Shown: one piece after another, positions 2,707-49,731 of the stretch
Layout of the letters: the number at the start of each line of letters is the position of its first letter
Position numbering within the stretch: position 1 is the stretch's first letter
Origin: an uncultured Candidatus Saccharibacteria bacterium
GTDB taxonomy: Bacteria; Patescibacteriota; Minisyncoccia; Phycocordibacterales; EsbW-18
Reading direction: 5' to 3'
Assembly (NCBI GenBank): GCA_964478705.1
Contig: CAYZIR010000002.1
Span: 23,760 to 87,759, forward strand
DNA: 64,000 nucleotides
Position numbers and translations under genes: made by a program
Notes under the pieces: generated by a model
The model's database searches: none
What the model saw: the letters and a program-made list of their open reading frames with translations, nothing else
What the model was told of the DNA's origin: nothing

Positions 2707-4005
2707 TTATCGTTTGGTGACGTGTCCTGCAATATCCTGTATCGCGAGGGTGGCTTCGGTGCCTGACGTAAGTTCTTTCACAGGAATTGTCCCGCGAGAG
2801 AGTTCTTCTTCACCGACCACTGCAATAAACGGGATACCAATCTTTTCTGCATATTTAATCTGATCACCAAGTTTTTTATCACCAAAATAGACCACAGTAC
2901 GTGCCCCATTTTTTCGAATGGTTTCAGCAATCTCGTGCACAGCGACACGGTCTTCTTCACGAAGGACGCAGAGCATCACATCCGCAGGATTTTTTCGTTG
3001 AGGAAGGAGGTTACGTATTTCAAGAAAATCGCGAATGGTGACATCTCCCATGCCGAACCCGACCGCAGGAAGGCTTTCATCAGAAAAGAGCTCGAGGAGG
3101 CGGTCGTATCGTCCGCCACCAAAGAGTGCGCGGTTGTTTTGTGGATCGGTATCAAAGAGCTCAAATACGATACCCGTGTAGTAATCGAACCCGCGCATCA
3201 GGGTTGGGTCGAATTGCACGTTCGTAACGCCAACCATAGCGAGCCCGGCAATGACCTTTTCCAGATCATCAATCCATTTTGTGTCACTCACGCAGTGTGG
3301 CATGTGTTCGCGGAGCTCACTGACACTTTTTGCTTTGAAAATTGAAAGAAGCATGTCGGCACCGACGCCAAGAATCTTCACGAGCGCTTCTTCAAACTCG
3401 CTCTCACTCATTTTTGCTTTTCGATCAATCAAGCCCGCGACAGCACGGCGCTCCTCTTCGGTGATTGCAAAACAATCGGTAAAGAGCGTGTGATACATCG
3501 CACGGTGATTGATTTTCACCACAAAATCTTTACTCGTTGCTCCAAATGCTTCAAGGACGCGCGATGCGATGGTAATTGTTTCAATTTCTCCCGCAATGCC
3601 AGGAACGCCAAATATATCGACATTAAGTTGCCAGTGCTCTCGCAAGCGTCCACGCTGGGGTCGCTCATAGCGAAATACGTTGGGAATCGAGAACCATCGG
3701 GCAGGGAAGGCAATCTCACGACGGCGTCCAGCAATCATACGCGCAACCGTTGGTGTCATTTCAGGACGGAGCGTTACCTTACGGTCACCACGGTCGGTGA
3801 AGGTATATGTTTGCTCGTTGACGTGCTCTTCGTTTGTTTTTGCTGAATAGAGTTCAGCTGGTTCGAGGAGTGACGCGTTATATTCTTCATAGCCGTAGCG
3901 GGCAAGCACAGAGCGCCACGTATCAAAAATGTAGTTCTGGATCGCCTGATCTTCCGGATAAAAATCACGGACGCCTTTATAGGATTCGGTAGAAAGTTTG
4001 GTCAT
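2707..4005 (-). CDS. hisS: histidyl-tRNA synthetase
   Basis: MTKLSTESYKGVRDFYP start and class II HisRS motifs; start trimmed to ATG 4005, which has GGAGG upstream. Confidence 0.9.
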   Translation of the reverse strand: MTKLSTESYKGVRDFYPEDQAIQNYIFDTWRSVLARYGYEEYNASLLEPAELYSAKTNEEHVNEQTYTFTDRGDRKVTLRPEMTPTVARMIAGRRREIAFPARWFSIPNVFRYERPQRGRLREHWQLNVDIFGVPGIAGEIETITIASRVLEAFGATSKDFVVKINHRAMYHTLFTDCFAITEEERRAVAGLIDRKAKMSESEFEEALVKILGVGADMLLSIFKAKSVSELREHMPHCVSDTKWIDDLEKVIAGLAMVGVTNVQFDPTLMRGFDYYTGIVFELFDTDPQNNRALFGGGRYDRLLELFSDESLPAVGFGMGDVTIRDFLEIRNLLPQRKNPADVMLCVLREEDRVAVHEIAETIRKNGARTVVYFGDKKLGDQIKYAEKIGIPFIAVVGEEELSRGTIPVKELTSGTEATLAIQDIAGHVTKR

Positions 4006-20355: not shown

Positions 20356-20443
20356 AGTAACTTTTGTTACACGGTACATGTTTCGTGATTATTTGACCTT
20401 TCTGTCAATTCATTTGTCGAGAGAAACATTGTAAAATACACCT

Positions 20444-21007
20444 ATGACGAAGAAGAAAGAAACCTCTCCTGAAGATATTGAGATCATAGAAGACGAAGAG
20501 ACCGTCGCTCGGAAACCTTTTGGTAAGAGCGACAGTAAACTTCGTGATGAGCTCGATCAGGCAAACAAAGAGAAAAAGGAGTACCTTGCCGGCTGGCAAC
20601 GTGCCCAGGCAGACCTCGCAAATTTCCGTAAAGACGCGTTTGAGGCCGAAAAGAAGGTCTTTCCGAGGGCTTTAACGACCATCCTGACCGACCTCTTGCC
20701 GGTCTTGGATAGCTTTGACCTCGCGTTTGGCAATAAAGAAGCATGGGAATCCGCTCCAAAGAATTGGCGTGATGGTGTCACCTATATCCATCAACAATTC
20801 TTAAGCGTTCTCTCGGGGTATGGCGTTTCGGTGATTGATCCCCTTGGCGAGCAGTTTAACCCCTCTGTCCACGAATCAATCGAAGCGATACCTGTTGCAG
20901 AGGCGGATAAAGACGGTAAAATCCTCTCCGTAATGCAAAAAGGGTATCGCATGGGCGAAACAATCATACGCCCGGCCCGTGTGAGAGTTGCAAAATTTGA
21001 GGAGTGA
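20444..21007 (+). CDS. grpE: nucleotide exchange factor GrpE
   Basis: GrpE coiled-coil and C-terminal domain. Confidence 0.9.
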   Translation: MTKKKETSPEDIEIIEDEETVARKPFGKSDSKLRDELDQANKEKKEYLAGWQRAQADLANFRKDAFEAEKKVFPRALTTILTDLLPVLDSFDLAFGNKEAWESAPKNWRDGVTYIHQQFLSVLSGYGVSVIDPLGEQFNPSVHESIEAIPVAEADKDGKILSVMQKGYRMGETIIRPARVRVAKFEE

Positions 21008-36278: not shown

Positions 36279-36340
36279 GGATTTTTGGGCAAATTGATGG
36301 GGGAGTTGCTTTTCTTGTTAAACGTGCTATTATTCTTCTC

Positions 36341-36640
36341 GGAAGTTAGAGTGTTCTTTTGGGTTGACTAAGGCTCTATCGCGAGGAATCGGCACAGGGG
36401 GTGCTTGAGACCGCGATATACCGTGTGGCGACCATGCATGCAGTGGAGCGACGACTACCTCCGGTCTTCGGTCTCCTGTTCCATGAAGCAATCGCCCTGT
36501 CATTCCTGGTTGTTAAGACCTGGAGTGCGACGCCGAAAAAACCCATCCGGAAGTTCACTGTAACTTCCCCCATCAATGAGCGAAATAGCGAGATGTCCCC
36601 CTCGCTATCGAACTCCTCTTGGTGGGGCTTTTTTTATACA
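36341..36640 (+). ncRNA. candidate structured non-coding RNA or cis-leader of unknown class
   Basis: TGCTATTAT -10 element at 36325; about 300 nt with several hairpins (GGAAGTT-cactgt-AACTTCC, ATAGCGAG/CTCGCTAT); ends GGTGGGGCTTTTTTT; no convincing ORF. Confidence 0.3.
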
Positions 36641-36669: not shown

Positions 36670-38055
36670 ATGACTGAGGGCACACAGGTAACCATGGAGT
36701 CAATCATCAGCCTCGCTAAGCGACGCGGGTTTGTGTATCCCGGCTCCGAGATTTATGGCGGAATGGCTGGAATGTATGACTTTGGCCCATACGGTGTTGA
36801 ACTCTTAAACAACATCAAAAAGGCTTGGTGGGAAGAACACGTTCAAAAACGTGACAACTACGTTGGTCTTGATTCGGCGATGTTTAAGGATCCGCGTGTT
36901 TGGGAAGCGTCTGGACACACCAGCGGTTTTTCTGACCCGCTCTCTGAGTGCAAAAAGTGCAACACCCGCATCCGTGTTGATAAAGAGTTGGAAAAGATAG
37001 GCGTTACCGCTGACGAAAAAATGACCGAGGCTCAACTGAACACGCTCTTTGACGAACACAAGACAAAAATAAAGTGTCCTAAGTGTGGAGCAAATGACTT
37101 CACACCCGTCCGTGCGTTTAACCTTTTGGTAAAGACAAACATGGGCGACTTCACCGGCAAGAACGAACAGCCGGTCTACCTCCCAGGAGAAGCGTGCCAG
37201 GGAATCTATTTGAACTTCAAAAACGTCGTGGACACCACACGCGTAAAGATTCCTTTTGGTATCGCACAAATTGGTAAGGCGTTCCGCAATGAAATCTCGC
37301 CACGCAACTTCTTGTTCCGCACGCGTGAGATGGAACAAGCCGATACACAATTTTTTGTTCGCCCGAATGAAAACAAAGAAGCATACGATCGCATCAAGAA
37401 CGAACGCTTTACCTGGTATATAAAAATGGGCATCCGAGAGGAGAATTTGCGTTGGAAACAGCACGAGAACCTCGTTTTTTACGCTTCTGATGCATGGGAT
37501 ATCGAATATAACTTCCCATCCTACGGCTTTGACGAGATGGAGGGTATCCACGACCGCACCGACTACGATCTGACCCAGCATATGAAGCATTCAGGAACCG
37601 ACCTGAACTATACGGACCCGCATACCGGAGAAAAATACATTCCATGGATCTTGGAAACATCGGTCGGGCTTGGACGCATGTTCCTTGCATTCATCTCTGA
37701 CGCGTACGCGGAAGAAGGTGTTGGTGAAGAGTCTCGTACGGTTCTGAAGCTTTCTCCAAAGCTTGCACCAATTAAAGCAGCGGTTTTCCCGCTCTTGAAG
37801 AATAAACCCGAGCTCGTCGAGAAGGCTCGCGCGGTATTCGATATGTTAAAAGAACGCGTTCGATGTGAATTCGACGACAACGGTAACATCGGCAAACGCT
37901 ATCGAAGGCAGGATGAGATAGGCACACCGCTCTGCATCACGATCGACTTCGACACGCTTGAAAACGACACCGTGACCGTTCGCGATCGCGACACCATGGA
38001 GCAGGCGCGTGTCCCTATCTCTGAGCTTCTCGCACGTGTTACCCGCGACCTCTAA
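36670..38055 (+). CDS. glyQS: glycyl-tRNA synthetase (alpha2 class II, archaeal/eukaryotic-like)
   Basis: SLAKRRGFVYPGSEIYGG N-terminus; TGCTATATT -10 element 6 nt upstream of the ATG. Confidence 0.85.
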   Translation: MTEGTQVTMESIISLAKRRGFVYPGSEIYGGMAGMYDFGPYGVELLNNIKKAWWEEHVQKRDNYVGLDSAMFKDPRVWEASGHTSGFSDPLSECKKCNTRIRVDKELEKIGVTADEKMTEAQLNTLFDEHKTKIKCPKCGANDFTPVRAFNLLVKTNMGDFTGKNEQPVYLPGEACQGIYLNFKNVVDTTRVKIPFGIAQIGKAFRNEISPRNFLFRTREMEQADTQFFVRPNENKEAYDRIKNERFTWYIKMGIREENLRWKQHENLVFYASDAWDIEYNFPSYGFDEMEGIHDRTDYDLTQHMKHSGTDLNYTDPHTGEKYIPWILETSVGLGRMFLAFISDAYAEEGVGEESRTVLKLSPKLAPIKAAVFPLLKNKPELVEKARAVFDMLKERVRCEFDDNGNIGKRYRRQDEIGTPLCITIDFDTLENDTVTVRDRDTMEQARVPISELLARVTRDL

Positions 38056-38059
38056 ATAT

Positions 38060-39007
38060 ATGTCTAAAAAAATCTTACTTTCAGGAATACAGCCGAGCGG
38101 TGTTTTGCACATCGGAAACTATTTTGGTGCGATGAAGCAGTTTGTTGATATGCAGGAAGACTACGAATCCTACATTTTTATCGCCAACTATCACGCGCTC
38201 ACAACACTTCAGGATGCCGAAAAGCTCTCACAGTACACACTTGATAGCGTGATTGACCACTTGGCGGTTGGTCTCGACCCGAAGAAGGCAACAATTTTCG
38301 TCCAGTCGGATGTTCCACAGGTCACCGAGCTCACGTGGATCTTCAATACGCTCATCACCGTGCCATACATGGAACGCGCGGTCGCTTTTAAAGACAAAGT
38401 CGCGAAGGGGATTGAACCGACCATGGGACTGTTTGACTATCCGGTCTTGATGGCCGCAGATATTCTCTTACCGTTGGCGGACATCATCCCGGTTGGTCAA
38501 GATCAAAAGCAACACGTCGAATACGCACGCGATATCGCACAGAAGTTCAACAACACGTTTGGTGAGGTATTTAAAATTCCTGAAGCAAAGATTTTACCTG
38601 AAGTCGCAACGGTGCCTGGCACTGACGGACAGAAGATGAGCAAGAGCTACGGCAATACGATTCCGCTCTTCTCCACACGCGAAGAAATCACCAAAGCGGT
38701 TATGTCGATCGTGACCGACTCATCGGGCGGTATCCCGGTGAACGTCTACAACCTCCACAAGTGCTTCCGCCCTGAAAGTGAATTAAAAGAGCTCTACGAA
38801 GCTAACAAGGGAAGCTACAAGACGCTCAAAGAGGCGTTGATTGAAGATATTGATGCGTTTATCGCACCACTTCGCGAACGCCGTGCAGAGATTGCACAGG
38901 ACAAAGATGCGGTTATCGCAATGCTCAAAGAAAACGGTGAGAAAGTTCGTGCTCGCGCAGAGAAGGTGATGGATGACGTGCGAAAGAAGACGGGGTTGAA
39001 GTTCTAA
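38060..39007 (+). CDS. trpS: tryptophanyl-tRNA synthetase
   Basis: HIGN variant and KMSKS motifs. Confidence 0.9.
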   Translation: MSKKILLSGIQPSGVLHIGNYFGAMKQFVDMQEDYESYIFIANYHALTTLQDAEKLSQYTLDSVIDHLAVGLDPKKATIFVQSDVPQVTELTWIFNTLITVPYMERAVAFKDKVAKGIEPTMGLFDYPVLMAADILLPLADIIPVGQDQKQHVEYARDIAQKFNNTFGEVFKIPEAKILPEVATVPGTDGQKMSKSYGNTIPLFSTREEITKAVMSIVTDSSGGIPVNVYNLHKCFRPESELKELYEANKGSYKTLKEALIEDIDAFIAPLRERRAEIAQDKDAVIAMLKENGEKVRARAEKVMDDVRKKTGLKF

Positions 39008-39010
39008 AAG

Positions 39011-39040
39011 AAAAAGACCGCGGGGTTCCGCGGTCTCGGC
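39011..39040. terminator. bidirectional terminator
   Basis: GACCGCGG-ggtt-CCGCGGTC; A-run on its left gives a U-run for the minus gene. Confidence 0.6.
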
Positions 39041-39094
39041 GTCAGGGCGCCATCGATTCTGCTCCTGCTAGGGGCGACTGCCTCGAAACTCACA

Positions 39095-39370
39095 CTAGCG
39101 ACTCCTCAACTTCTCAAGGTTTTCTACAAAAGTTCGGAGACCCTCAATCATCTCTCCGAGAAACTTGATAGAAAAACTTTGAGTGAAAGTTGCATTGGAG
39201 TATCGAATCCAGACGAAGGTCTCACCGTCCTCATAGAACAGTGCGTCCTCGCAGAATGCGTACTCGATGATGTCCTCGGTGGTAGCCGAGTACAAATCAT
39301 CTCGCTCGAGCACCACTACTGAGCTGATATCAGCCCGAGAGGGTAGCCACTGTGGGATTTCAGAGTACAT
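39095..39370 (-). CDS. hypothetical protein
   Basis: GGAGG SD; TTGACA -35 upstream on the minus strand. Confidence 0.45.
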   Translation of the reverse strand: MYSEIPQWLPSRADISSVVVLERDDLYSATTEDIIEYAFCEDALFYEDGETFVWIRYSNATFTQSFSIKFLGEMIEGLRTFVENLEKLRSR

Positions 39371-39489
39371 ATCGTCCTCCTAGCTCGTATCGAGCCAGAG
39401 AACTAATCTGTTCGGCGTAGGCCGATACGATTCCTTTTATATCGTATCATTTAAATTATATTTGTCAATTCATAAAAAACGTGCTTCAT

Positions 39490-39745
39490 GTGATATGTTT
39501 TATGAGTAAAGACACCGACGCCGATGACACGGCCGAGTTGGGGAAAGAACCCTCGAAAGAGGTAGTAGAATCTCCCGGGGATGCCCGTAATAGCTGTAAT
39601 GAAGATCCTCCTACGCCAAGGCTTCGGAGGATGCAGTAAGGTGGTACCGCGCTTGGTCTTCCGAAGCCGTTTGAGGCGAAGGAGACACCACAATCGCCCT
39701 TACAAAAGTCACTGACTATTCGGTGGTTTTTGTAAGGGCTATTTT
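39490..39745 (+). promoter_or_regulatory. T-box riboswitch-like leader
   Basis: AGUAAGGUGGUACCGCG at 39635-39651 matches the T-box consensus; GUAAGG pairs with CCUUAC at 39688-93, which is also part of terminator stem CCCTTACAAAA/TTTTGTAAGGG + TATTTTTGTTT (39683-39750); GAC Asp codons followed by A in a 5' stem-loop. Confidence 0.5.
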
Positions 39746-39750
39746 TGTTT

Positions 39751-40059
39751 ATGAAACCAGACACAGTATCATTCATCTATCGATGGCAAATTCCACCCGA
39801 CCTTCACGAGAGCTTCTTACAACAATGGGAAGAACTCTCAAAAATAAACGTCGAGAAATATGGCCTGATAGATGCAAATCTCTATCGCATCGAACCAGAT
39901 AATTTCGTTTCAGTGACACAATGGCCTGATGAAGAAAGTTGGAAAAAATGGAAGGAAAATGATGCGAATCATGAATACCGAGAACGATGGAGACCGTATC
40001 GCATAGCAGGACCAGAACAAATGAGCAGTATTGTTAAAATAGCTAACATTAAACCATGA
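39751..40059 (+). CDS. small ABM/Dabb-like protein (putative monooxygenase fold)
   Basis: 102-aa ORF right after the T-box terminator, overlapping the aspS start by 4 nt. Confidence 0.4.
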   Translation: MKPDTVSFIYRWQIPPDLHESFLQQWEELSKINVEKYGLIDANLYRIEPDNFVSVTQWPDEESWKKWKENDANHEYRERWRPYRIAGPEQMSSIVKIANIKP

Positions 40060-41462
40060 ACCCACGCACACTCATCAAAGATCTCTCAGACCATGTTGGT
40101 AAAGAAGTATATTTTTCTGGATTCGTTCACGCGCGTCGTGACCATGGAAAAATTGTTTTCTTCGATATGCGCGACGAGACAGGGCACGTACAGACTGTTA
40201 TCTCAAGCAAAAATGAAGCTGTGTTCGCGTCAATCAACGATGTGCGCAGTGAGTGGGTACTTACGATCAAAGGTTTGGTTAAAGCGCGTCCGGAAAAGCT
40301 CGTGAACGTTGATGAGGCGAATGGTGGCATCGAGGTTGAAGCGCTTGAAGTGGAAGTGTTGAACAAAGCGAACACACCACCATTTGACCCGACAGCGGAC
40401 ACCGCAGGTATCAACGAGGAAACCCGTCTCCAGTATCGCTACATTGACCTTCGTTCGGAGCGTATGCAAAAGAATATTCGATTGCGAAGCGAGTGGGTGC
40501 GTCGCTGCCGTGACTACCTCTTCGGCGAGCGATTTGTCGAGATTGAAACACCGCTCCTCACACAATCAACGCCTGAAGGTTCACGCGACTTCATCATCCC
40601 ATCACGCCACAACCCCGGCACCTTCTACGCGCTTCCGCAGTCACCTCAGCAATACAAGCAACTCCTCATGGCATCAGGCTTCGAGCGATACTTCCAAGTC
40701 GCACGCTGTGTACGCGACGAAGACCTCCGTGCTGACCGTGGCTATGAATTCACACAAATCGACCTCGAGATGGCGTTCGTGACCAAAGAGGATGTCATGC
40801 AGACGGTTGAAGCAATGGTGACCTCTGCTGCAGAAGCGATGGGCTTCACTATCAAGGAAAAGCCATTCCCACGCATTTCATACAAAGACGCAATGGCGAA
40901 GTACGGTGCAGACAAATTCGATATGCGCACTGAAGAAGACAAAGCAAACGGCGTCCTCGCATACGCGTGGGTTGTTGATTTCCCATTCTTCGAGAAGACC
41001 GACGAAGGGAAGTGGACGTTCACCCACAATCCATTCTCGATGCCAGCTCCAGAGCACCTCGAGTGGCACATGAAGGGCGAGCATCTTGAAGACATCATCA
41101 CCCAGCAGTACGACCTAGTATGCAACGGCTTTGAGTCAGGCGGGGGAAGCATCCGTGCGCACCAGCCAGAAATCTTACGCGCTACCTACAAGAACATGGG
41201 CTACACAGACCTCGAAATTGAAGAAAGTGTCGGCCATATGCTCGAAGCGTTCGGGTATGGTGTTCCACCGCACGGCGGTATCGCGCTTGGTGTTGAGCGA
41301 AACATCATGAACCTTTCGGGAGAATCATACCTCCGTGAAGTACAGCCATTCCCGATGACCGGACGTGGCAAGACCGCAATCATGAACGCACCAACACCGG
41401 CAACACCGGAACAATTGAAAGAACTCGGCCTCTTGGTCGTGAAGAAAGAAGAGAAGAAATAA
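40056..41462 (+). CDS. aspS: aspartyl-tRNA synthetase (short archaeal-type)
   Basis: OB-fold N-terminus; class II motifs (FQVARCVRDEDLRADR, GGGSIRAH). Confidence 0.9.
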   Translation: MNPRTLIKDLSDHVGKEVYFSGFVHARRDHGKIVFFDMRDETGHVQTVISSKNEAVFASINDVRSEWVLTIKGLVKARPEKLVNVDEANGGIEVEALEVEVLNKANTPPFDPTADTAGINEETRLQYRYIDLRSERMQKNIRLRSEWVRRCRDYLFGERFVEIETPLLTQSTPEGSRDFIIPSRHNPGTFYALPQSPQQYKQLLMASGFERYFQVARCVRDEDLRADRGYEFTQIDLEMAFVTKEDVMQTVEAMVTSAAEAMGFTIKEKPFPRISYKDAMAKYGADKFDMRTEEDKANGVLAYAWVVDFPFFEKTDEGKWTFTHNPFSMPAPEHLEWHMKGEHLEDIITQQYDLVCNGFESGGGSIRAHQPEILRATYKNMGYTDLEIEESVGHMLEAFGYGVPPHGGIALGVERNIMNLSGESYLREVQPFPMTGRGKTAIMNAPTPATPEQLKELGLLVVKKEEKK

Positions 41463-46761: not shown

Positions 46762-47916
46762 ATGAAAATCGTATTAACCGGAGGAGGTTCAGGAGGACAT
46801 TTCTACCCTCTGATTGCCGTTGCGGAAGAAATCCGCCGTATTGCACGAGAAGAACACCTTCTTGAACCGACCCTTATCTACATGGCTGAGTCTGCATACG
46901 ATAAAGACGCGCTCTTTGAACACGATATTGAATTCAAGAAAGCCACCTCAGGAAAGCGTCGTGAATATGCATCGGTTCAAAACTTCTTTGATCTTTTCAA
47001 GCTCGGATGGGGGACACTACAAGCGTTGGTCAAGCTTTTCTTTATATTTCCTGACGTTGTATTCAGTAAAGGCGGATACGTGAGCGTGCCGATACTTATT
47101 GCCGCACGTTTTTTTGGCATTCCTGTCATCATCCATGAATCAGACAGTGTTATCGGTAAAGCGAGCGCATGGTCAGCACGCTTCGCAAAACGCATTGCGA
47201 TTTCATATCCTGAGACAGCGCTTGAATTTCAAAAACTTCTTTCACCAAAAAACAGAGATGCAAAAATTGCAGTTACAGGAAATCCTGTCCGCACTGAAGT
47301 ACTCACTCCTGCACAGACCGGTGCGCGCGAATTCTTGAATCTCAAGGAAAATCTACCGGTTATTGTTGTCTTCGGAGGCTCACAGGGTGCCAAAGCGATC
47401 AACGAAATCATTGTTGAAGCACTTCCACAGTTAACTGAACGTGCCTATGTCATTCACCAGACAGGAAAGGATCATTTTGAGATTACCAAAGAAACCGCAC
47501 GCTTGGCACTTCCTGACGTACAGATGTTTGAACGATATAAACCATTTCCATTTTTGAATGTCCTCGCGCTTCGTATGACAGCGGGAGTTGCCGACATCAT
47601 CATCTCACGCGCAGGATCGGGAGGAATTTTTGAAATCGCAGCGTGGGGCAAACCATCGCTTATCATCCCAATTCCTGAAGATGTAAGTAGAGATCAGAGA
47701 AGCAACGCCTTTTCTTATGCTCGCACCGGAGCTGCCATTGTGATGGAGCAGGCGAACCTTACCCCACATCTTATCGTCTCTGAAGTAACACGAATTCTCG
47801 ATGACGCACAACTTCGCGAACAAATGAGCAATGCAGCAAAAGCGTTCGCGCGCCCTGATGCATCCACAAAAATTGCACGAGAAATTCTTGACTTGGCACT
47901 TGAACACGAAAAATAA
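46762..47916 (+). CDS. murG: UDP-GlcNAc:lipid I N-acetylglucosaminyltransferase MurG
   Basis: GGSGGHFYPLIAV glycine-rich loop; TGCTACACT 7 nt upstream. Confidence 0.85.
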   Translation: MKIVLTGGGSGGHFYPLIAVAEEIRRIAREEHLLEPTLIYMAESAYDKDALFEHDIEFKKATSGKRREYASVQNFFDLFKLGWGTLQALVKLFFIFPDVVFSKGGYVSVPILIAARFFGIPVIIHESDSVIGKASAWSARFAKRIAISYPETALEFQKLLSPKNRDAKIAVTGNPVRTEVLTPAQTGAREFLNLKENLPVIVVFGGSQGAKAINEIIVEALPQLTERAYVIHQTGKDHFEITKETARLALPDVQMFERYKPFPFLNVLALRMTAGVADIIISRAGSGGIFEIAAWGKPSLIIPIPEDVSRDQRSNAFSYARTGAAIVMEQANLTPHLIVSEVTRILDDAQLREQMSNAAKAFARPDASTKIAREILDLALEHEK

Positions 47917-47964
47917 GAGGCGCGGATTATAGCATCTGCCAGCAGGAACACGGTTCAGAAAGCC

Positions 47965-47992
47965 TATTTTTAGGCCTTTTTATTGAACCCTC
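47965..47992 (+). terminator. terminator of murG
   Basis: AAGCCTA-ttttt-AGGCCT followed by TTTTTATT. Confidence 0.5.
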
Positions 47993-48019
47993 AAAAGGCT
48001 TGACAAATGAAATGGAACT
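47993..48019 (+). promoter_or_regulatory. sigma70-type promoter
   Basis: TTGACA, 16-nt spacer, TATACT. Confidence 0.6.
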
Positions 48020-48029
48020 GCTATACTAC

Positions 48030-48385
48030 CTCTGGAGGGTTGGTTGGCGCTGGAGACGTCCGACGCAATCTTCTTTCTTTGGATACACCAGCCTACGGGG
48101 TCCAAGGAATCTGACGTAAAAGAAAGGCTACTCGCGGGGGTGCTCTAATTGAGATTAGACTTGGCCACCCCTTCGAGGAATTTGTTCTTCCGGCACTTGT
48201 ACCCCTCGCGCAGAAACAAAAGCGGAGCTTACGGACAAGCCAGCCGACCAATGCCAAGTCACCCCCACCTTCATCTGTGTCCGGGAGGAAGGGGGTTCAG
48301 AGGCTCTGTCTAACTTTGTCTCTGCGTTGTGGACACGCTTTGCCCCCACGGCTCCTCCAAGCCGTGGGTTTTTCTTTTATCTGAA
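48030..48385 (+). ncRNA. candidate non-coding RNA of about 355 nt with a tmRNA/tRNA-like 3' end (class unresolved)
   Basis: Promoter-to-terminator unit with no ORF; 3' end GGGGGUUCA...CCCCCACGGCUCCUCCA resembles the tmRNA T-arm and acceptor 3' strand; terminator CCCACGGCT-cctccaa-GCCGTGGG + TTTTTCTTTT. Confidence 0.35.
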
Positions 48386-48414
48386 AGCATAAAAATTATG
48401 CTAAAATGGTTGTT

Positions 48415-49731
48415 ATGACCAAGGTTATTACACGCTTTCCACCGTCTCCGACAGGACTTTTTCATATCGGTAGCGCACGAACCGCACTTTTTAACTATCT
48501 TTTTGCACGCCAGAACAAGGGTGAGTTTTTGATGCGATTTGAAGACACCGACAAAGAGCGAAGCAAACGAGAGTTCGAGGACGATATCCTCAAAAGCCTC
48601 ACATGGCTTGGGATTACTGCAGACAATGCTGATATTCCTCGTCAATCTGAACGTACAGCACTCTATCAAGAGTACTTACAAAAACTGATTGCATCGGGTG
48701 GTGCATACGAGGGAGAAAAATCAGAGAAAGGGGAGGGAAACGTAATCCGTTTCAAAAATCCGAATACAACCATCACCTTCAGTGATGTCATTCGAGGCGA
48801 CGTGACGGTCGACACCACTGACCTCGGTGATTTTGTGATTGCACGAAGCGCAGACGAGCCAATCTACCACTTCACGGTTGTCGTCGATGACATCCTTGCA
48901 GGCGTCACTCACGTAATTCGCGGAGAAGATCATGTATCGAATACTCCACGCCAAATTTTGATCCTTGAAGCTCTTGGCGGAACACGACCGGTCTACGCAC
49001 ATATTCCACTCATCCTTGGTCCTGATAAAGCAAAACTTTCAAAACGCCACGGCGCTGCATCAGTGAACGAATATAAAGCACTTGGGTATCTCCCTGAAGC
49101 GATTATTAACCATCTCGGGCTTCTCGGATGGCATCCAAGCACCGATCAAGAGTTCTTTACCATAGAAGAGCTTACAGCACTTTTCACCATTGATCGTGTT
49201 CAAAAAGCGCCCGCGGTGTTTGATATCCAGAAATTAAACGATCTCAATCGCCAACACCTTGCAAAACTATCTAACGAGGACTTTCTTGCTGTTGCGGACC
49301 CATTCATTCCTCCATCGATTAATCGAGCAAACCTCATAAATTTGCTTCCAAGTATTCGTGAACGTGTGACACTGCTCTCAGAACTTCAAACACTGTTGAC
49401 GGACGGAGGAGAGCTTTCTTTTGCCTTTGGGCTCGGAACATACGACTCGGAAAAATTAATCTGGAAAGATAGTTCAAGGGAAGAAACGCTCGAGCATCTC
49501 GTCTACGTACAAAAAGTCATTGAAGATCTTCCTGACTCATGCGAATCATCTGTAGTAAAAAATGCCTTGTGGCCGTATGCGGAAGAAAAAGGAAAGGGGA
49601 ATGTGCTCTGGCCACTTCGTTTCGCGTTGACCGGTAAAGAAAAATCTCCTGATCCTTTCACCGTAGCAGGAATTCTTGGTAAAAAAGAAACGCTCGCTCG
49701 TATTGCATTCGCCATTCAATCTCTTGCATAA
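48415..49731 (+). CDS. gltX: glutamyl-tRNA synthetase
   Basis: HIGS variant and KLSKR motifs; TGCTAAAAT -10 element overlaps ATG 48406, so start placed at ATG 48415. Confidence 0.9.
   Translation: MTKVITRFPPSPTGLFHIGSARTALFNYLFARQNKGEFLMRFEDTDKERSKREFEDDILKSLTWLGITADNADIPRQSERTALYQEYLQKLIASGGAYEGEKSEKGEGNVIRFKNPNTTITFSDVIRGDVTVDTTDLGDFVIARSADEPIYHFTVVVDDILAGVTHVIRGEDHVSNTPRQILILEALGGTRPVYAHIPLILGPDKAKLSKRHGAASVNEYKALGYLPEAIINHLGLLGWHPSTDQEFFTIEELTALFTIDRVQKAPAVFDIQKLNDLNRQHLAKLSNEDFLAVADPFIPPSINRANLINLLPSIRERVTLLSELQTLLTDGGELSFAFGLGTYDSEKLIWKDSSREETLEHLVYVQKVIEDLPDSCESSVVKNALWPYAEEKGKGNVLWPLRFALTGKEKSPDPFTVAGILGKKETLARIAFAIQSLA

Follow-up and report, generated by a model that had tools for sequence, protein, structure and literature searches.

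The described systems closest to the locus analysed here are the T-box leaders (RF00230), in which a promoter, a structured leader of 250-330 nucleotides (nt) and an intrinsic terminator directly precede an aminoacyl-tRNA synthetase gene. A genome has several divergent copies before different synthetase genes, and a small hairpin loop presents the cognate codon followed by A. This layout recurs, together with a marginal candidate for such a hairpin loop, in a predicted transcription unit of the 64-kb stretch of Candidatus Saccharibacteria DNA examined in this study (contig CAYZIR010000002.1; hereafter the window, meaning the whole 64 kb). This unit, hereafter the gltX unit, lies in the intergenic space 47917-48414 between murG (46762-47916) and gltX (48415-49731), both on the plus strand. 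It differs from the T-box leaders in that it has no T-box sequence, no UGGN bulge and no A1/A2 antiterminator, and obtains no score from the T-box models of Rfam or of the clade. It also exceeds the local T-boxes in length by about 100 nt and has no recognisable Stem II or IIA/B, and the gltX gene keeps its own conserved leaderless promoter.

Three further systems invite comparison. In four-region attenuators, of which the trp and pheST leaders are examples, the successive segments have three possible pairings, 1:2, 2:3 and 3:4. The gltX unit has segments of this kind, regions 1 and 3 both beginning with CCCCCAC and both complementing region 2; it has, however, no leader peptide, and its alternative pairings are no stronger than those of shuffled sequences of matched composition. 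Transfer-messenger RNA (tmRNA, the product of ssrA) resembles the unit in length, in its strong promoter and terminator and in a UUCA after a G-run, whereas the unit lacks the acceptor stem, the G3:U70 pair and the 7-nt T-loop, has no typical tag frame and shows no pseudoknot pattern to which ARAGORN or Rfam responds. The drifting housekeeping RNAs of the Candidate Phyla Radiation (CPR), namely RNase P RNA (PMC8172020) and RNAs of the 6S/Ms1 type, are likewise autonomous, GC-rich promoter-terminator genes that drift fast, and the paired 5' and 3' ends of the analogous gly and his units described below are a further likeness. Here, in contrast, we found neither the P4 geometry of CR-I and CR-V nor a rod with a central bubble, and there are several distinct copies per genome, each beside a synthetase gene.

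We conclude that the gltX unit is a real predicted non-coding transcription unit that belongs to no described family. Our tentative reading, to which we give a probability of about 0.4, is that it is a synthetase-linked regulatory RNA of the attenuator type, T-box-like in its logic but not in its membership.

The gltX unit and its counterparts in the window

The promoter of the unit, P1, has an extended -10 element, and transcription is predicted from the spacing to start near G48034 (Table 1). The predicted transcript runs from ~48034 to ~48378, which corresponds to an RNA of about 310-345 nt. Throughout the window, 11 of the 13 promoter matches with at least 10 of 12 consensus positions are intergenic, and promoters of this type therefore appear to be in real use here. 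The same holds for the terminator, the stem of which has a pair probability of 0.9-1.0 in the ensemble: since strong terminators comparable to it are mostly intergenic across the window, this type also appears to be in real use in the organism. The GC content of the predicted transcript is 55.7%, that of the window 46.9% and that of the flanking genes 45-46%. On the plus strand, the region of the unit contains no open reading frame (ORF) longer than 54 amino acids (aa), and the codon-usage scores of the ORFs within the transcript (-0.43 to 0.01) stand against 0.30 +/- 0.17 for real genes. A GGAGG lies at the 5' end of the RNA. It is not evidence of a ribosome-binding site, because this genome is nearly devoid of Shine-Dalgarno sequences (one gene of the 32 in the window carries such a motif). 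Neither an internal duplication within the RNA nor further copies of it in the window were found. The promoter, the terminator, the lack of a coding signal and the raised GC content together confirm the unit descriptively. The earlier note on this DNA, which was made from the letters alone, had already pointed to a consensus-like TTGACA-16-TATACT promoter, a strong intrinsic terminator and the lack of a credible ORF. All three were borne out, by the 11/12 promoter match, by the 9-bp terminator stem and by ORF lengths and codon scores, respectively; its length of about 355 nt becomes ~345 nt when counted from the predicted start to the T-run.

The position of the unit is shared with other units. 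Four promoter-RNA-terminator units are present in the window, and each lies directly upstream of, and is co-oriented with, an aminoacyl-tRNA synthetase gene. Since only five synthetase genes (hisS, glyQS, trpS, aspS and gltX) are found among ~68 ORFs, it is very unlikely that this association is due to chance. The earlier note had overlooked both the gltX gene directly downstream and the three analogous units. Apart from a minus-strand unit that carries a 91-aa ORF, no other non-coding promoter-to-terminator unit was found in the 64 kb. Our reading of the gltX unit as an attenuator-type regulator rests on this fact, namely that it is one of four synthetase-linked units with the same layout, of which the aspS member is a true T-box.

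The hisS unit bears on the question of read-through. The hisS ATG at 4005 is preceded by a GGAGG, which is rare here, and no convincing promoter of its own is present. These facts suggest that hisS needs read-through from the unit upstream. The 5' 12 nt of this RNA pair perfectly with its positions 236-247, its fold has a z-score of -2.4, and a search against Rfam at E<=10 gave no match. The glyQS unit also gave no match to Rfam in E-value mode.

A short motif is shared among the three units other than the aspS leader (Table 1). The corresponding pattern, CGARGWAU-N(0-12)-CGSCAC, which was defined post hoc, matches only the gltX, glyQS and hisS units in the window, where ~0.07 matches are expected. 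In the fetched loci of relatives (see below), the lone match to CGARGWAT...CGSCAC (in L025) lies inside the ftsW coding sequence. A second motif, GAGGGKTTGGTNGG, was dropped: although its seven matches in the window stand against an expectation of 1.4, the surplus falls in coding sequence or in hairpins of no relation. Neither pairwise nor multiple alignments of the three units and the glyQS orthologues of relatives reached significance. Statistically, we could not show from these alignments that the gltX, hisS and glyQS units are homologous to each other.

Some further observations concern the surroundings of these units. The synthetase genes are unusually dense in the window (2707-4005, 36670-41462 and 48415-49731), and no tRNA gene was detected in it. 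The minus-strand unit mentioned above (39468-39014) consists of a promoter (TTGACA-16-TACGAT with TG) and a terminator (39037-39014) around the 91-aa ORF (39095-39370). This ORF has no Pfam match, and the unit is wedged between trpS and the aspS T-box. The identity of murG is given by its Glyco_transf_28 domain and by synteny.

Table 1. Positions of the gltX unit, its parts, the downstream gene and the analogous units in the window
Feature	Position	Strand	Description
hisS unit	4386-4030	-	promoter 4386-4358, TTGACG-17-TATACT; ~320 nt, 53% GC; terminator 4066-4043
glyQS-trpS unit	36306-36640	+	promoter 36306-36333, RNA of ~300 nt, long terminator hairpin, then glyQS-trpS
aspS unit	39506-39745	+	leader before an ABM-domain ORF and aspS
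Weak terminator-like hairpin	47962-47985	+	GCCTATTTTTAGGC then T-run CTTTTTATTG; closes the murG transcript, 5' of the gltX unit
Promoter P1	48000-48027	+	TTGACA, 16-nt spacer, TG-n-TATACT (extended -10); 11/12 consensus positions
Body of the predicted non-coding RNA	48034-48344	+	GC-rich (~55%), several G-runs and C-runs, no credible ORF
Hairpin GGCG-CUGGAGA-CGUC	48046-48060	+	loop ends in GAG (Glu codon) plus A beside the 3' arm
Motif CGAGGAAU-N9-CGGCAC	48174-48196	+	shared with the glyQS unit (36382-36395); degenerate in the hisS unit (4251-4231, -)
C-rich region 1	48260-48272	+	CACCCCCACCUUC; can pair with region 2, -18.5 kcal/mol, not significant against shuffles
G-rich region 2	48283-48297	+	GGGAGGAAGGGGGUU; pairs with region 1 or region 3; candidate antiterminator
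Local hairpin CAGAGGC-N13-GUCUCUG	48298-48324	+	present in minimum-free-energy folds
T-box-core-like element	48327-48338	+	UUGUGGACACGC; 8/11 positions of the T-box core GUGGNACCGCG; flanking helices missing
Intrinsic terminator	48345-48378	+	CCCACGGCU-CCUCCA-AGCCGUGGG then TTTTTCTTTT; perfect 9-bp stem, 7 G-C pairs
gltX own promoter	48399-48407	+	extended -10 TGCTAAAAT, 7 nt before the ATG, leaderless type
gltX (glutamate--tRNA ligase)	48415-49731	+	TIGR00464 gltX_bact, 422 bits; directly downstream of the unit

Relatives of the gltX locus and of the glyQS unit

By its GltX relatives, which come from Paceibacteria-like metagenome-assembled genomes (MAGs), the window belongs to Patescibacteria. 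Outside the source contig, the closest GltX among 5.8 billion proteins shows 61% identity. The gene order ftsW-(nadD)-murG-gltX is kept in 45 related gltX loci, in which the gap between murG and gltX is 40-60 nt long or is occupied by unrelated sequence. As far as the relatives examined can tell, the gltX unit is a lineage-specific orphan, absent from every one of them. Two other origins were considered and dropped: tblastn found no sign of a pseudogene remnant of the relatives' murG-gltX ORFs, and an origin from a phage or plasmid gave no blastn match.

The T-run of the terminator ends 37 nt before the gltX ATG on the same strand, and the promoter of gltX itself lies within this short interval. 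In relatives without the RNA (loci L001, L006, L007, L011 and L044), the same element (TATGCTAAAAT / TGCTATACT / TGCTACAAT) precedes the gltX ATG by 6-8 nt. Since the gltX promoter is conserved where the RNA is absent, the RNA unit is an insertion upstream of a complete gene, and gltX is, judging from this conservation, an ancestrally leaderless, self-sufficient gene. Many genes of the window, such as murG (TGCTACACT), gltX, glyQS, dnaJ and scpA, have an extended -10 element that ends 6-9 nt before the ATG. This implies that leaderless mRNAs are widespread here.

Other features upstream of gltX were seen in relatives. In the locus of the closest GltX relative (L044, 1264-1629), a 382-aa ORF with no Pfam match is inserted between murG and gltX, and a 365-nt leader with a consensus-like promoter precedes it. 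In a Paceibacterota MAG (L021, 3830-3990; also L020 and L022), two direct repeats of ~60 nt (CAGC..CACTCGCTCG.GAAAGAGTTAGCAGCCTCTTTCCCCTCGACTCGTTAGACTGTAA) lie directly upstream of gltX.

For the glyQS unit, positional orthologues were found in relatives (L127, 2190-2440; L128, 2190-2470; L130, 910-1090). Each of them consists of a promoter, a GC-rich RNA of 175-280 nt and a terminator, and the RNAs are followed by a conserved extended -10 element, TATACA...TGCTATATT, 7 nt before the glyQS ATG. The RNAs are only 39-46% identical to one another, although nucleotide identity in the GlyRS gene is 74-81%. They fold far beyond shuffled sequences, with z-scores of -3.7 to -5.8 (-5.8 for the T-box), and the RNA stays with glyQS in four genomes despite differing upstream neighbours. 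In the glyQS RNAs, as in the hisS unit, the 5' end pairs with the sequence just before the terminator. The more distant GlyRS loci (L131-L134, Paceibacteria) have no glyQS-upstream RNA. These facts establish that structured RNAs adjacent to synthetase genes are a real feature of this clade and that their sequences drift fast.

In two of these relatives, another GC-rich segment is present between glyQS and trpS (L127, 3853-4061; L128, 3889-4147). That of L127 starts with GGAGGGGUUGGUG, which resembles the 5' end of the gltX unit. In the relatives, the segment is followed by a small terminator, which is highly conserved, and by an extended -10 element ahead of trpS. In the window, glyQS and trpS overlap, and the segment is absent.

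Comparison with known RNA families

The aspS leader is, by its conservation and predicted structure, a genuine T-box riboswitch. Its core is AAGGUGGUACCGCG (39638-39651), its very short Stem I has the loop AU-GAC-A, ~43 nt are inserted into the loop of the antiterminator, and a 20-bp terminator lies at 39696-39739. Its score against the Rfam T-box model is 20.3 bits (E = 0.013), the gathering score being 93. Among 80 AspRS relatives from metagenomes, nine carry GGUGGCACCGCG before aspS, together with a Stem I that is very short and has the loop CU-GAC-A. Closer relatives reached via GlyRS (L127, L128/L129 and L130) possess homologues of the aspS leader (nhmmer E 1e-41 to 1e-10), and those of L127 and L128 score 33.6 and 45.3 bits, respectively, with the Rfam model. 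The homologues in L127, L128, L130 and nine other Patescibacteria loci are all sub-threshold in Rfam. An alignment of 11 sequences shows the antiterminator A1 helix, a 7-nt bulge and the A2 helix, with compensatory changes. In one relative (L122, 1641-1830), the Stem I loop of the aspS T-box has the Asn codon AAC followed by A in place of GAC; a non-discriminating AspRS might here be under the control of tRNA(Asn).

From the 11-sequence alignment we made a covariance model of the clade (R1) and ran it over the whole window with the filters off. The aspS leader received 132 bits. A weak match at 20429-20589 (plus strand; 14.8 bits, E ~0.002 by a rough calibration) covers only the Stem I/II part, is mostly coding and is probably due to chance. 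No match at E<=10 was found in the hisS and glyQS units. In the gltX unit, the Rfam model, R1 and a profile hidden Markov model of T-boxes, which was searched for local matches, were all blank. The gltX unit is therefore no T-box by any model applied, in a genome where T-boxes are present and can be detected.

Against other families, Rfam 15 at gathering thresholds gave no match in the window, and for the unit at E<=10 on 318-551 nt no match to tmRNA, RNase P, 6S, signal recognition particle (SRP) or T-box models was found. The sole matches at E<=10, on 551 or 318 nt, are terminator-driven or microRNA noise. A 6S RNA was rejected on this ground and because the predicted fold is multi-branched, with no rod and central bubble. 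Look-alikes of CR-I/CR-V and of SRP helix 8 picked out by hand were also dropped, since their positions and partners are unfit. A tRNA gene with an intron was rejected as well: ARAGORN with -i gave only nonsense calls at lowered thresholds, and the T-arm/acceptor geometry fails when followed by hand.

The likeness to tmRNA deserves a closer account, since the earlier note had found the 3' portion of the unit nearly identical to the T-arm and acceptor end of E. coli tmRNA. That claim did not survive comparison with the E. coli ssrA reference fetched from RefSeq. The quoted string, GGGGGUUCAAAUCCCCCCGGCUCCACCA, is absent from E. coli ssrA, the real 3' end of which is GGACGCGGGUUCAACUCCCGCCAGCUCCACCA, and the near-identity rested on an incorrectly quoted sequence. 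Global alignment of the unit with E. coli ssrA scores 7.0, compared with 8.2 +/- 2.8 for shuffles, and 142 of 500 shuffles do as well as the unit in the best local match to the 3' end of ssrA. ARAGORN found no genes in the window; in the region of the unit it made no tmRNA call at default, -ps or -ps80, and at -ps60 gave only a nonsense permuted call on the opposite strand. For an acceptor stem, the 5' GGAGGGU pairs with CGGCUCC at only four positions, so that no 7-bp stem is formed, and in the other register, GGAGGG/UCCUCC, the third pair is A3:U and no CCA follows. Position 3 is therefore A:U at best, and the G3:U70 pair, which the note could not find either, is absent. The CCUCCA taken for the acceptor end is the loop of the terminator hairpin. 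As for the supposed T-arm with an insert of ~47 nt, 46 nt lie between GGGGG (48291-95) and CCCCC (48343-47) in the place of the 7-nt T-loop, and this interval forms hairpins of its own. The frames that end in UAA give ...ERLLAGVL*, ...GFRGSV* and ...PRNLT*, none of which looks like a typical tag, though there is no strict rule for tags. No smpB was found near the unit.

Readings of the gltX unit and their meaning

Under the attenuator-type reading, polymerase starting at the strong P1 would transcribe a structured 5' domain and would normally stop at the terminator. If region 2 paired with the 5' arm and loop of the terminator rather than with region 1, transcription would read through into gltX, and this read-through would add to the basal leaderless transcription from the promoter of gltX itself. 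The insertion of the unit between murG and the leaderless promoter that gltX had ancestrally would be confined to this lineage. We infer that the RNA acts in cis, that the segments named here form the switch, and that the signal is the charging state of tRNA(Glu) or GluRS. Region 2 contains GGGGGUUCA, which the earlier note had read as a T-arm. The predicted pairing energies are -18.5 kcal/mol for 1:2, -21.4 kcal/mol for 2:3 (region 3 being 48343-48358) and -19.2 kcal/mol for the terminator arms, 3:4. Besides position and orientation, this reading is favoured by the presence of a true T-box before aspS, by the apparent need of hisS for read-through, by the attachment of stably folded RNAs to glyQS, by these pairings of comparable strength and, marginally, by the loop at 48046-48060, where GAG is followed by A as GAC is in the aspS T-boxes.

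Several observations weigh against this reading. Duplexes as strong as 2:3 are found in 26% of shuffles, and both alternative pairings are at least as strong in 16% of dinucleotide shuffles. Folding of the whole RNA is not significantly more stable than that of shuffles (z = -1.2 and -1.4), and the predicted terminators stay formed when the 5' sequence is masked. In the glyQS analogues, the helix that closes the 5' and 3' ends abuts the terminator and so leaves no room for a switch. Since gltX has its own promoter, conserved in relatives that have no RNA, P1 is not needed for gltX expression. In the 134 fetched related loci (among them 45 gltX, 80 aspS and 8 glyQS loci), neither nhmmer nor blastn found a homologue of the RNA, nor did blastn in phage and plasmid collections, and with no homologue at hand covariation analysis is impossible for this unit. 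Compared in pairs, the three units other than the aspS T-box show no significant similarity. Of the likenesses to T-boxes, the hairpin at the 5' end resembles the very short Stem I (loop CU-GAC-A) of the aspS T-boxes of the clade, but such a hairpin occurs in the first 80 nt of 4.9% of dinucleotide shuffles, which is marginal, and no counterpart bearing the respective codon is present in the his and gly units. R1, with the filters off, found nothing at E<=10 in the gltX unit, which also has no T-box core in the sense of a UGGN bulge flanked by A1 and A2 helices. Pairing of each RNA with the 5' end of its downstream mRNA gave no cognate-specific signal.

The strongest competitor of the attenuator-type reading is a free-standing small RNA gene, always terminated and acting in trans, for example through base-pairing or as a decoy that binds tRNA or a protein, GluRS for instance, with gltX transcribed only from its own leaderless promoter. 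The strong promoter and strong terminator around an intergenic stretch with no ORF are the generic layout of small RNA genes, the terminators are thermodynamically robust, and the gltX promoter is conserved in the relatives that have no RNA. The glyQS analogues of four genomes, each a closed domain with a terminator and a conserved leaderless promoter, are also typical of stable RNAs. A trans-acting RNA, however, needs no particular placement, whereas all non-coding units of the window lie upstream of, and co-oriented with, synthetase genes, and transcription of hisS seems to depend on its unit. A search for distinctive complementarity to the downstream mRNA found none, and no repeated protein-binding motif stood out: in the test for CsrA-type repeats, GGA occurs 10 times against 5 expected (z = 2.4), a weak enrichment seen in this unit alone. 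We regard such a gene as possible but on balance unlikely. That the unit is a remnant, in decay or without function, is very unlikely; it could for instance derive from a duplicated leader of the T-box type that the gltX promoter made superfluous, and perhaps still be transcribed to no purpose. Its restriction to one lineage, its absence from every relative examined and its unremarkable folding would agree with decay, as would faint T-box-like fragments seen by eye in canonical order (a Stem-I-like hairpin, GAAUCU...CGUAAAAG, a hairpin, UUGUGGACACGC and the terminator). Profile methods, on the other hand, find no T-box remnant, the GC content is ~9 points above the genome background, and neither a promoter that matches 11/12 positions and has an extended -10 nor a terminator with a perfect 9-bp stem would be likely to persist unselected in a streamlined genome. 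An mRNA for a small protein is highly improbable. The candidates are a 34-aa ORF (48044-48148), which begins with TTG 4-5 nt after GGAGG in the sequence GGAGGG and has a codon score of 0.01, between coding and non-coding values, and a 54-aa ORF (48149-48313), the score of which (-0.43) is non-coding-like. Shine-Dalgarno sequences are almost unused here, typical genes having leaderless ATG starts, and ~200 nt of GC-rich 3' sequence would have no explanation. The submitted translations of the ORFs overlapping the unit are absent from a collection of 15 billion proteins, those with TTG or GTG starts not having been queried again with an initial Met.

Membership of a known family is less probable still. 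For a canonical T-box riboswitch for tRNA(Glu), one may cite the location upstream of a synthetase gene with a terminator at the end, the presence of T-boxes in the genome and the clade, the hairpin loop with GAG followed by A, and a GUGGACACGC element. Yet Rfam is blank at E<=10, whereas the aspS T-box only 9 kb away scores 20 bits, R1 gives the aspS leader 132 bits and reports nothing here even with the filters off, there is no UGGN bulge between A1 and A2 helices, and UGGA (48330-48333) would need a U73 discriminator, which tRNA(Glu) normally does not have. We find this assignment scarcely credible. A strongly diverged RNase P RNA deserves hardly any weight, and it is kept above zero only because RNase P RNAs of the CPR can escape Rfam thresholds and default searches, as those of ~10 of 35 complete CPR genomes do (PMC8172020). 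The size and the strong promoter and terminator of the unit would fit, and by eye AGAAAGGCU is loosely like CR-I and GCAGAA...GCUUACGG loosely like CR-V. In RNase P RNA, CR-I (GAGGAAAGUCC) and CR-V (ACAGAA..GGCUUA) pair as P4 near both ends, and a specificity domain is present in addition; here only ~90 nt separate the two look-alikes, which are central in the RNA, misplaced with respect to its ends, and leave no room for that domain. RNaseP_bact_a and RNaseP_bact_b gave no match at E<=10 on 318 nt, which means roughly <13 bits, and the window holds two further unclassified RNAs of similar size, whereas a genome has one rnpB. For a divergent, intron-containing or permuted tmRNA, finally, the length is about right, a UUCA begins the interval between the G5 and C5 runs, and a CCA lies near the 3' end, but it lies within the terminator loop. 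With ARAGORN and Rfam blank, no 7-bp acceptor stem, no alanine identity pair, 46 nt instead of a 7-nt T-loop, similarity to ssrA at chance level, no smpB nearby and no frame ending in the typical hydrophobic tail of a tag, the probability of this assignment is negligible. The earlier note had left the class between a tmRNA-like or permuted ssrA and a new RNA. The former part is in practice refuted; the latter stands, in that the unit is an unclassified non-coding transcription unit.

A wider proposal can be added to the attenuator-type reading. The gltX, hisS and glyQS units, together with the glyQS orthologues in L127, L128 and L130, might form an undescribed class of synthetase-linked regulatory RNAs in this Paceibacteria clade, which would sense the status of tRNA or synthetase by means other than a T-box antiterminator and would work alongside leaderless promoters. 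We consider this proposal unlikely. If it were true, it would be a second, independent RNA solution to the control of synthetases.

For genome scans, the present case is a lesson that a likeness to tmRNA quoted without the reference sequence can be spurious. The T-boxes of this clade, with scores of 20-45 bits against the 93-bit threshold of Rfam, are missed by default annotation. If the gltX unit is an orphan small RNA or a relic, it is an ordinary one. If it is a working regulator, it would mean that ultra-small Patescibacteria, whose translated mRNAs are mostly leaderless and nearly devoid of Shine-Dalgarno sites, put large RNAs other than T-boxes before several synthetase genes, and it would represent a new way of matching the supply of synthetases to the need for them, as well as a new class of RNA for modelling.

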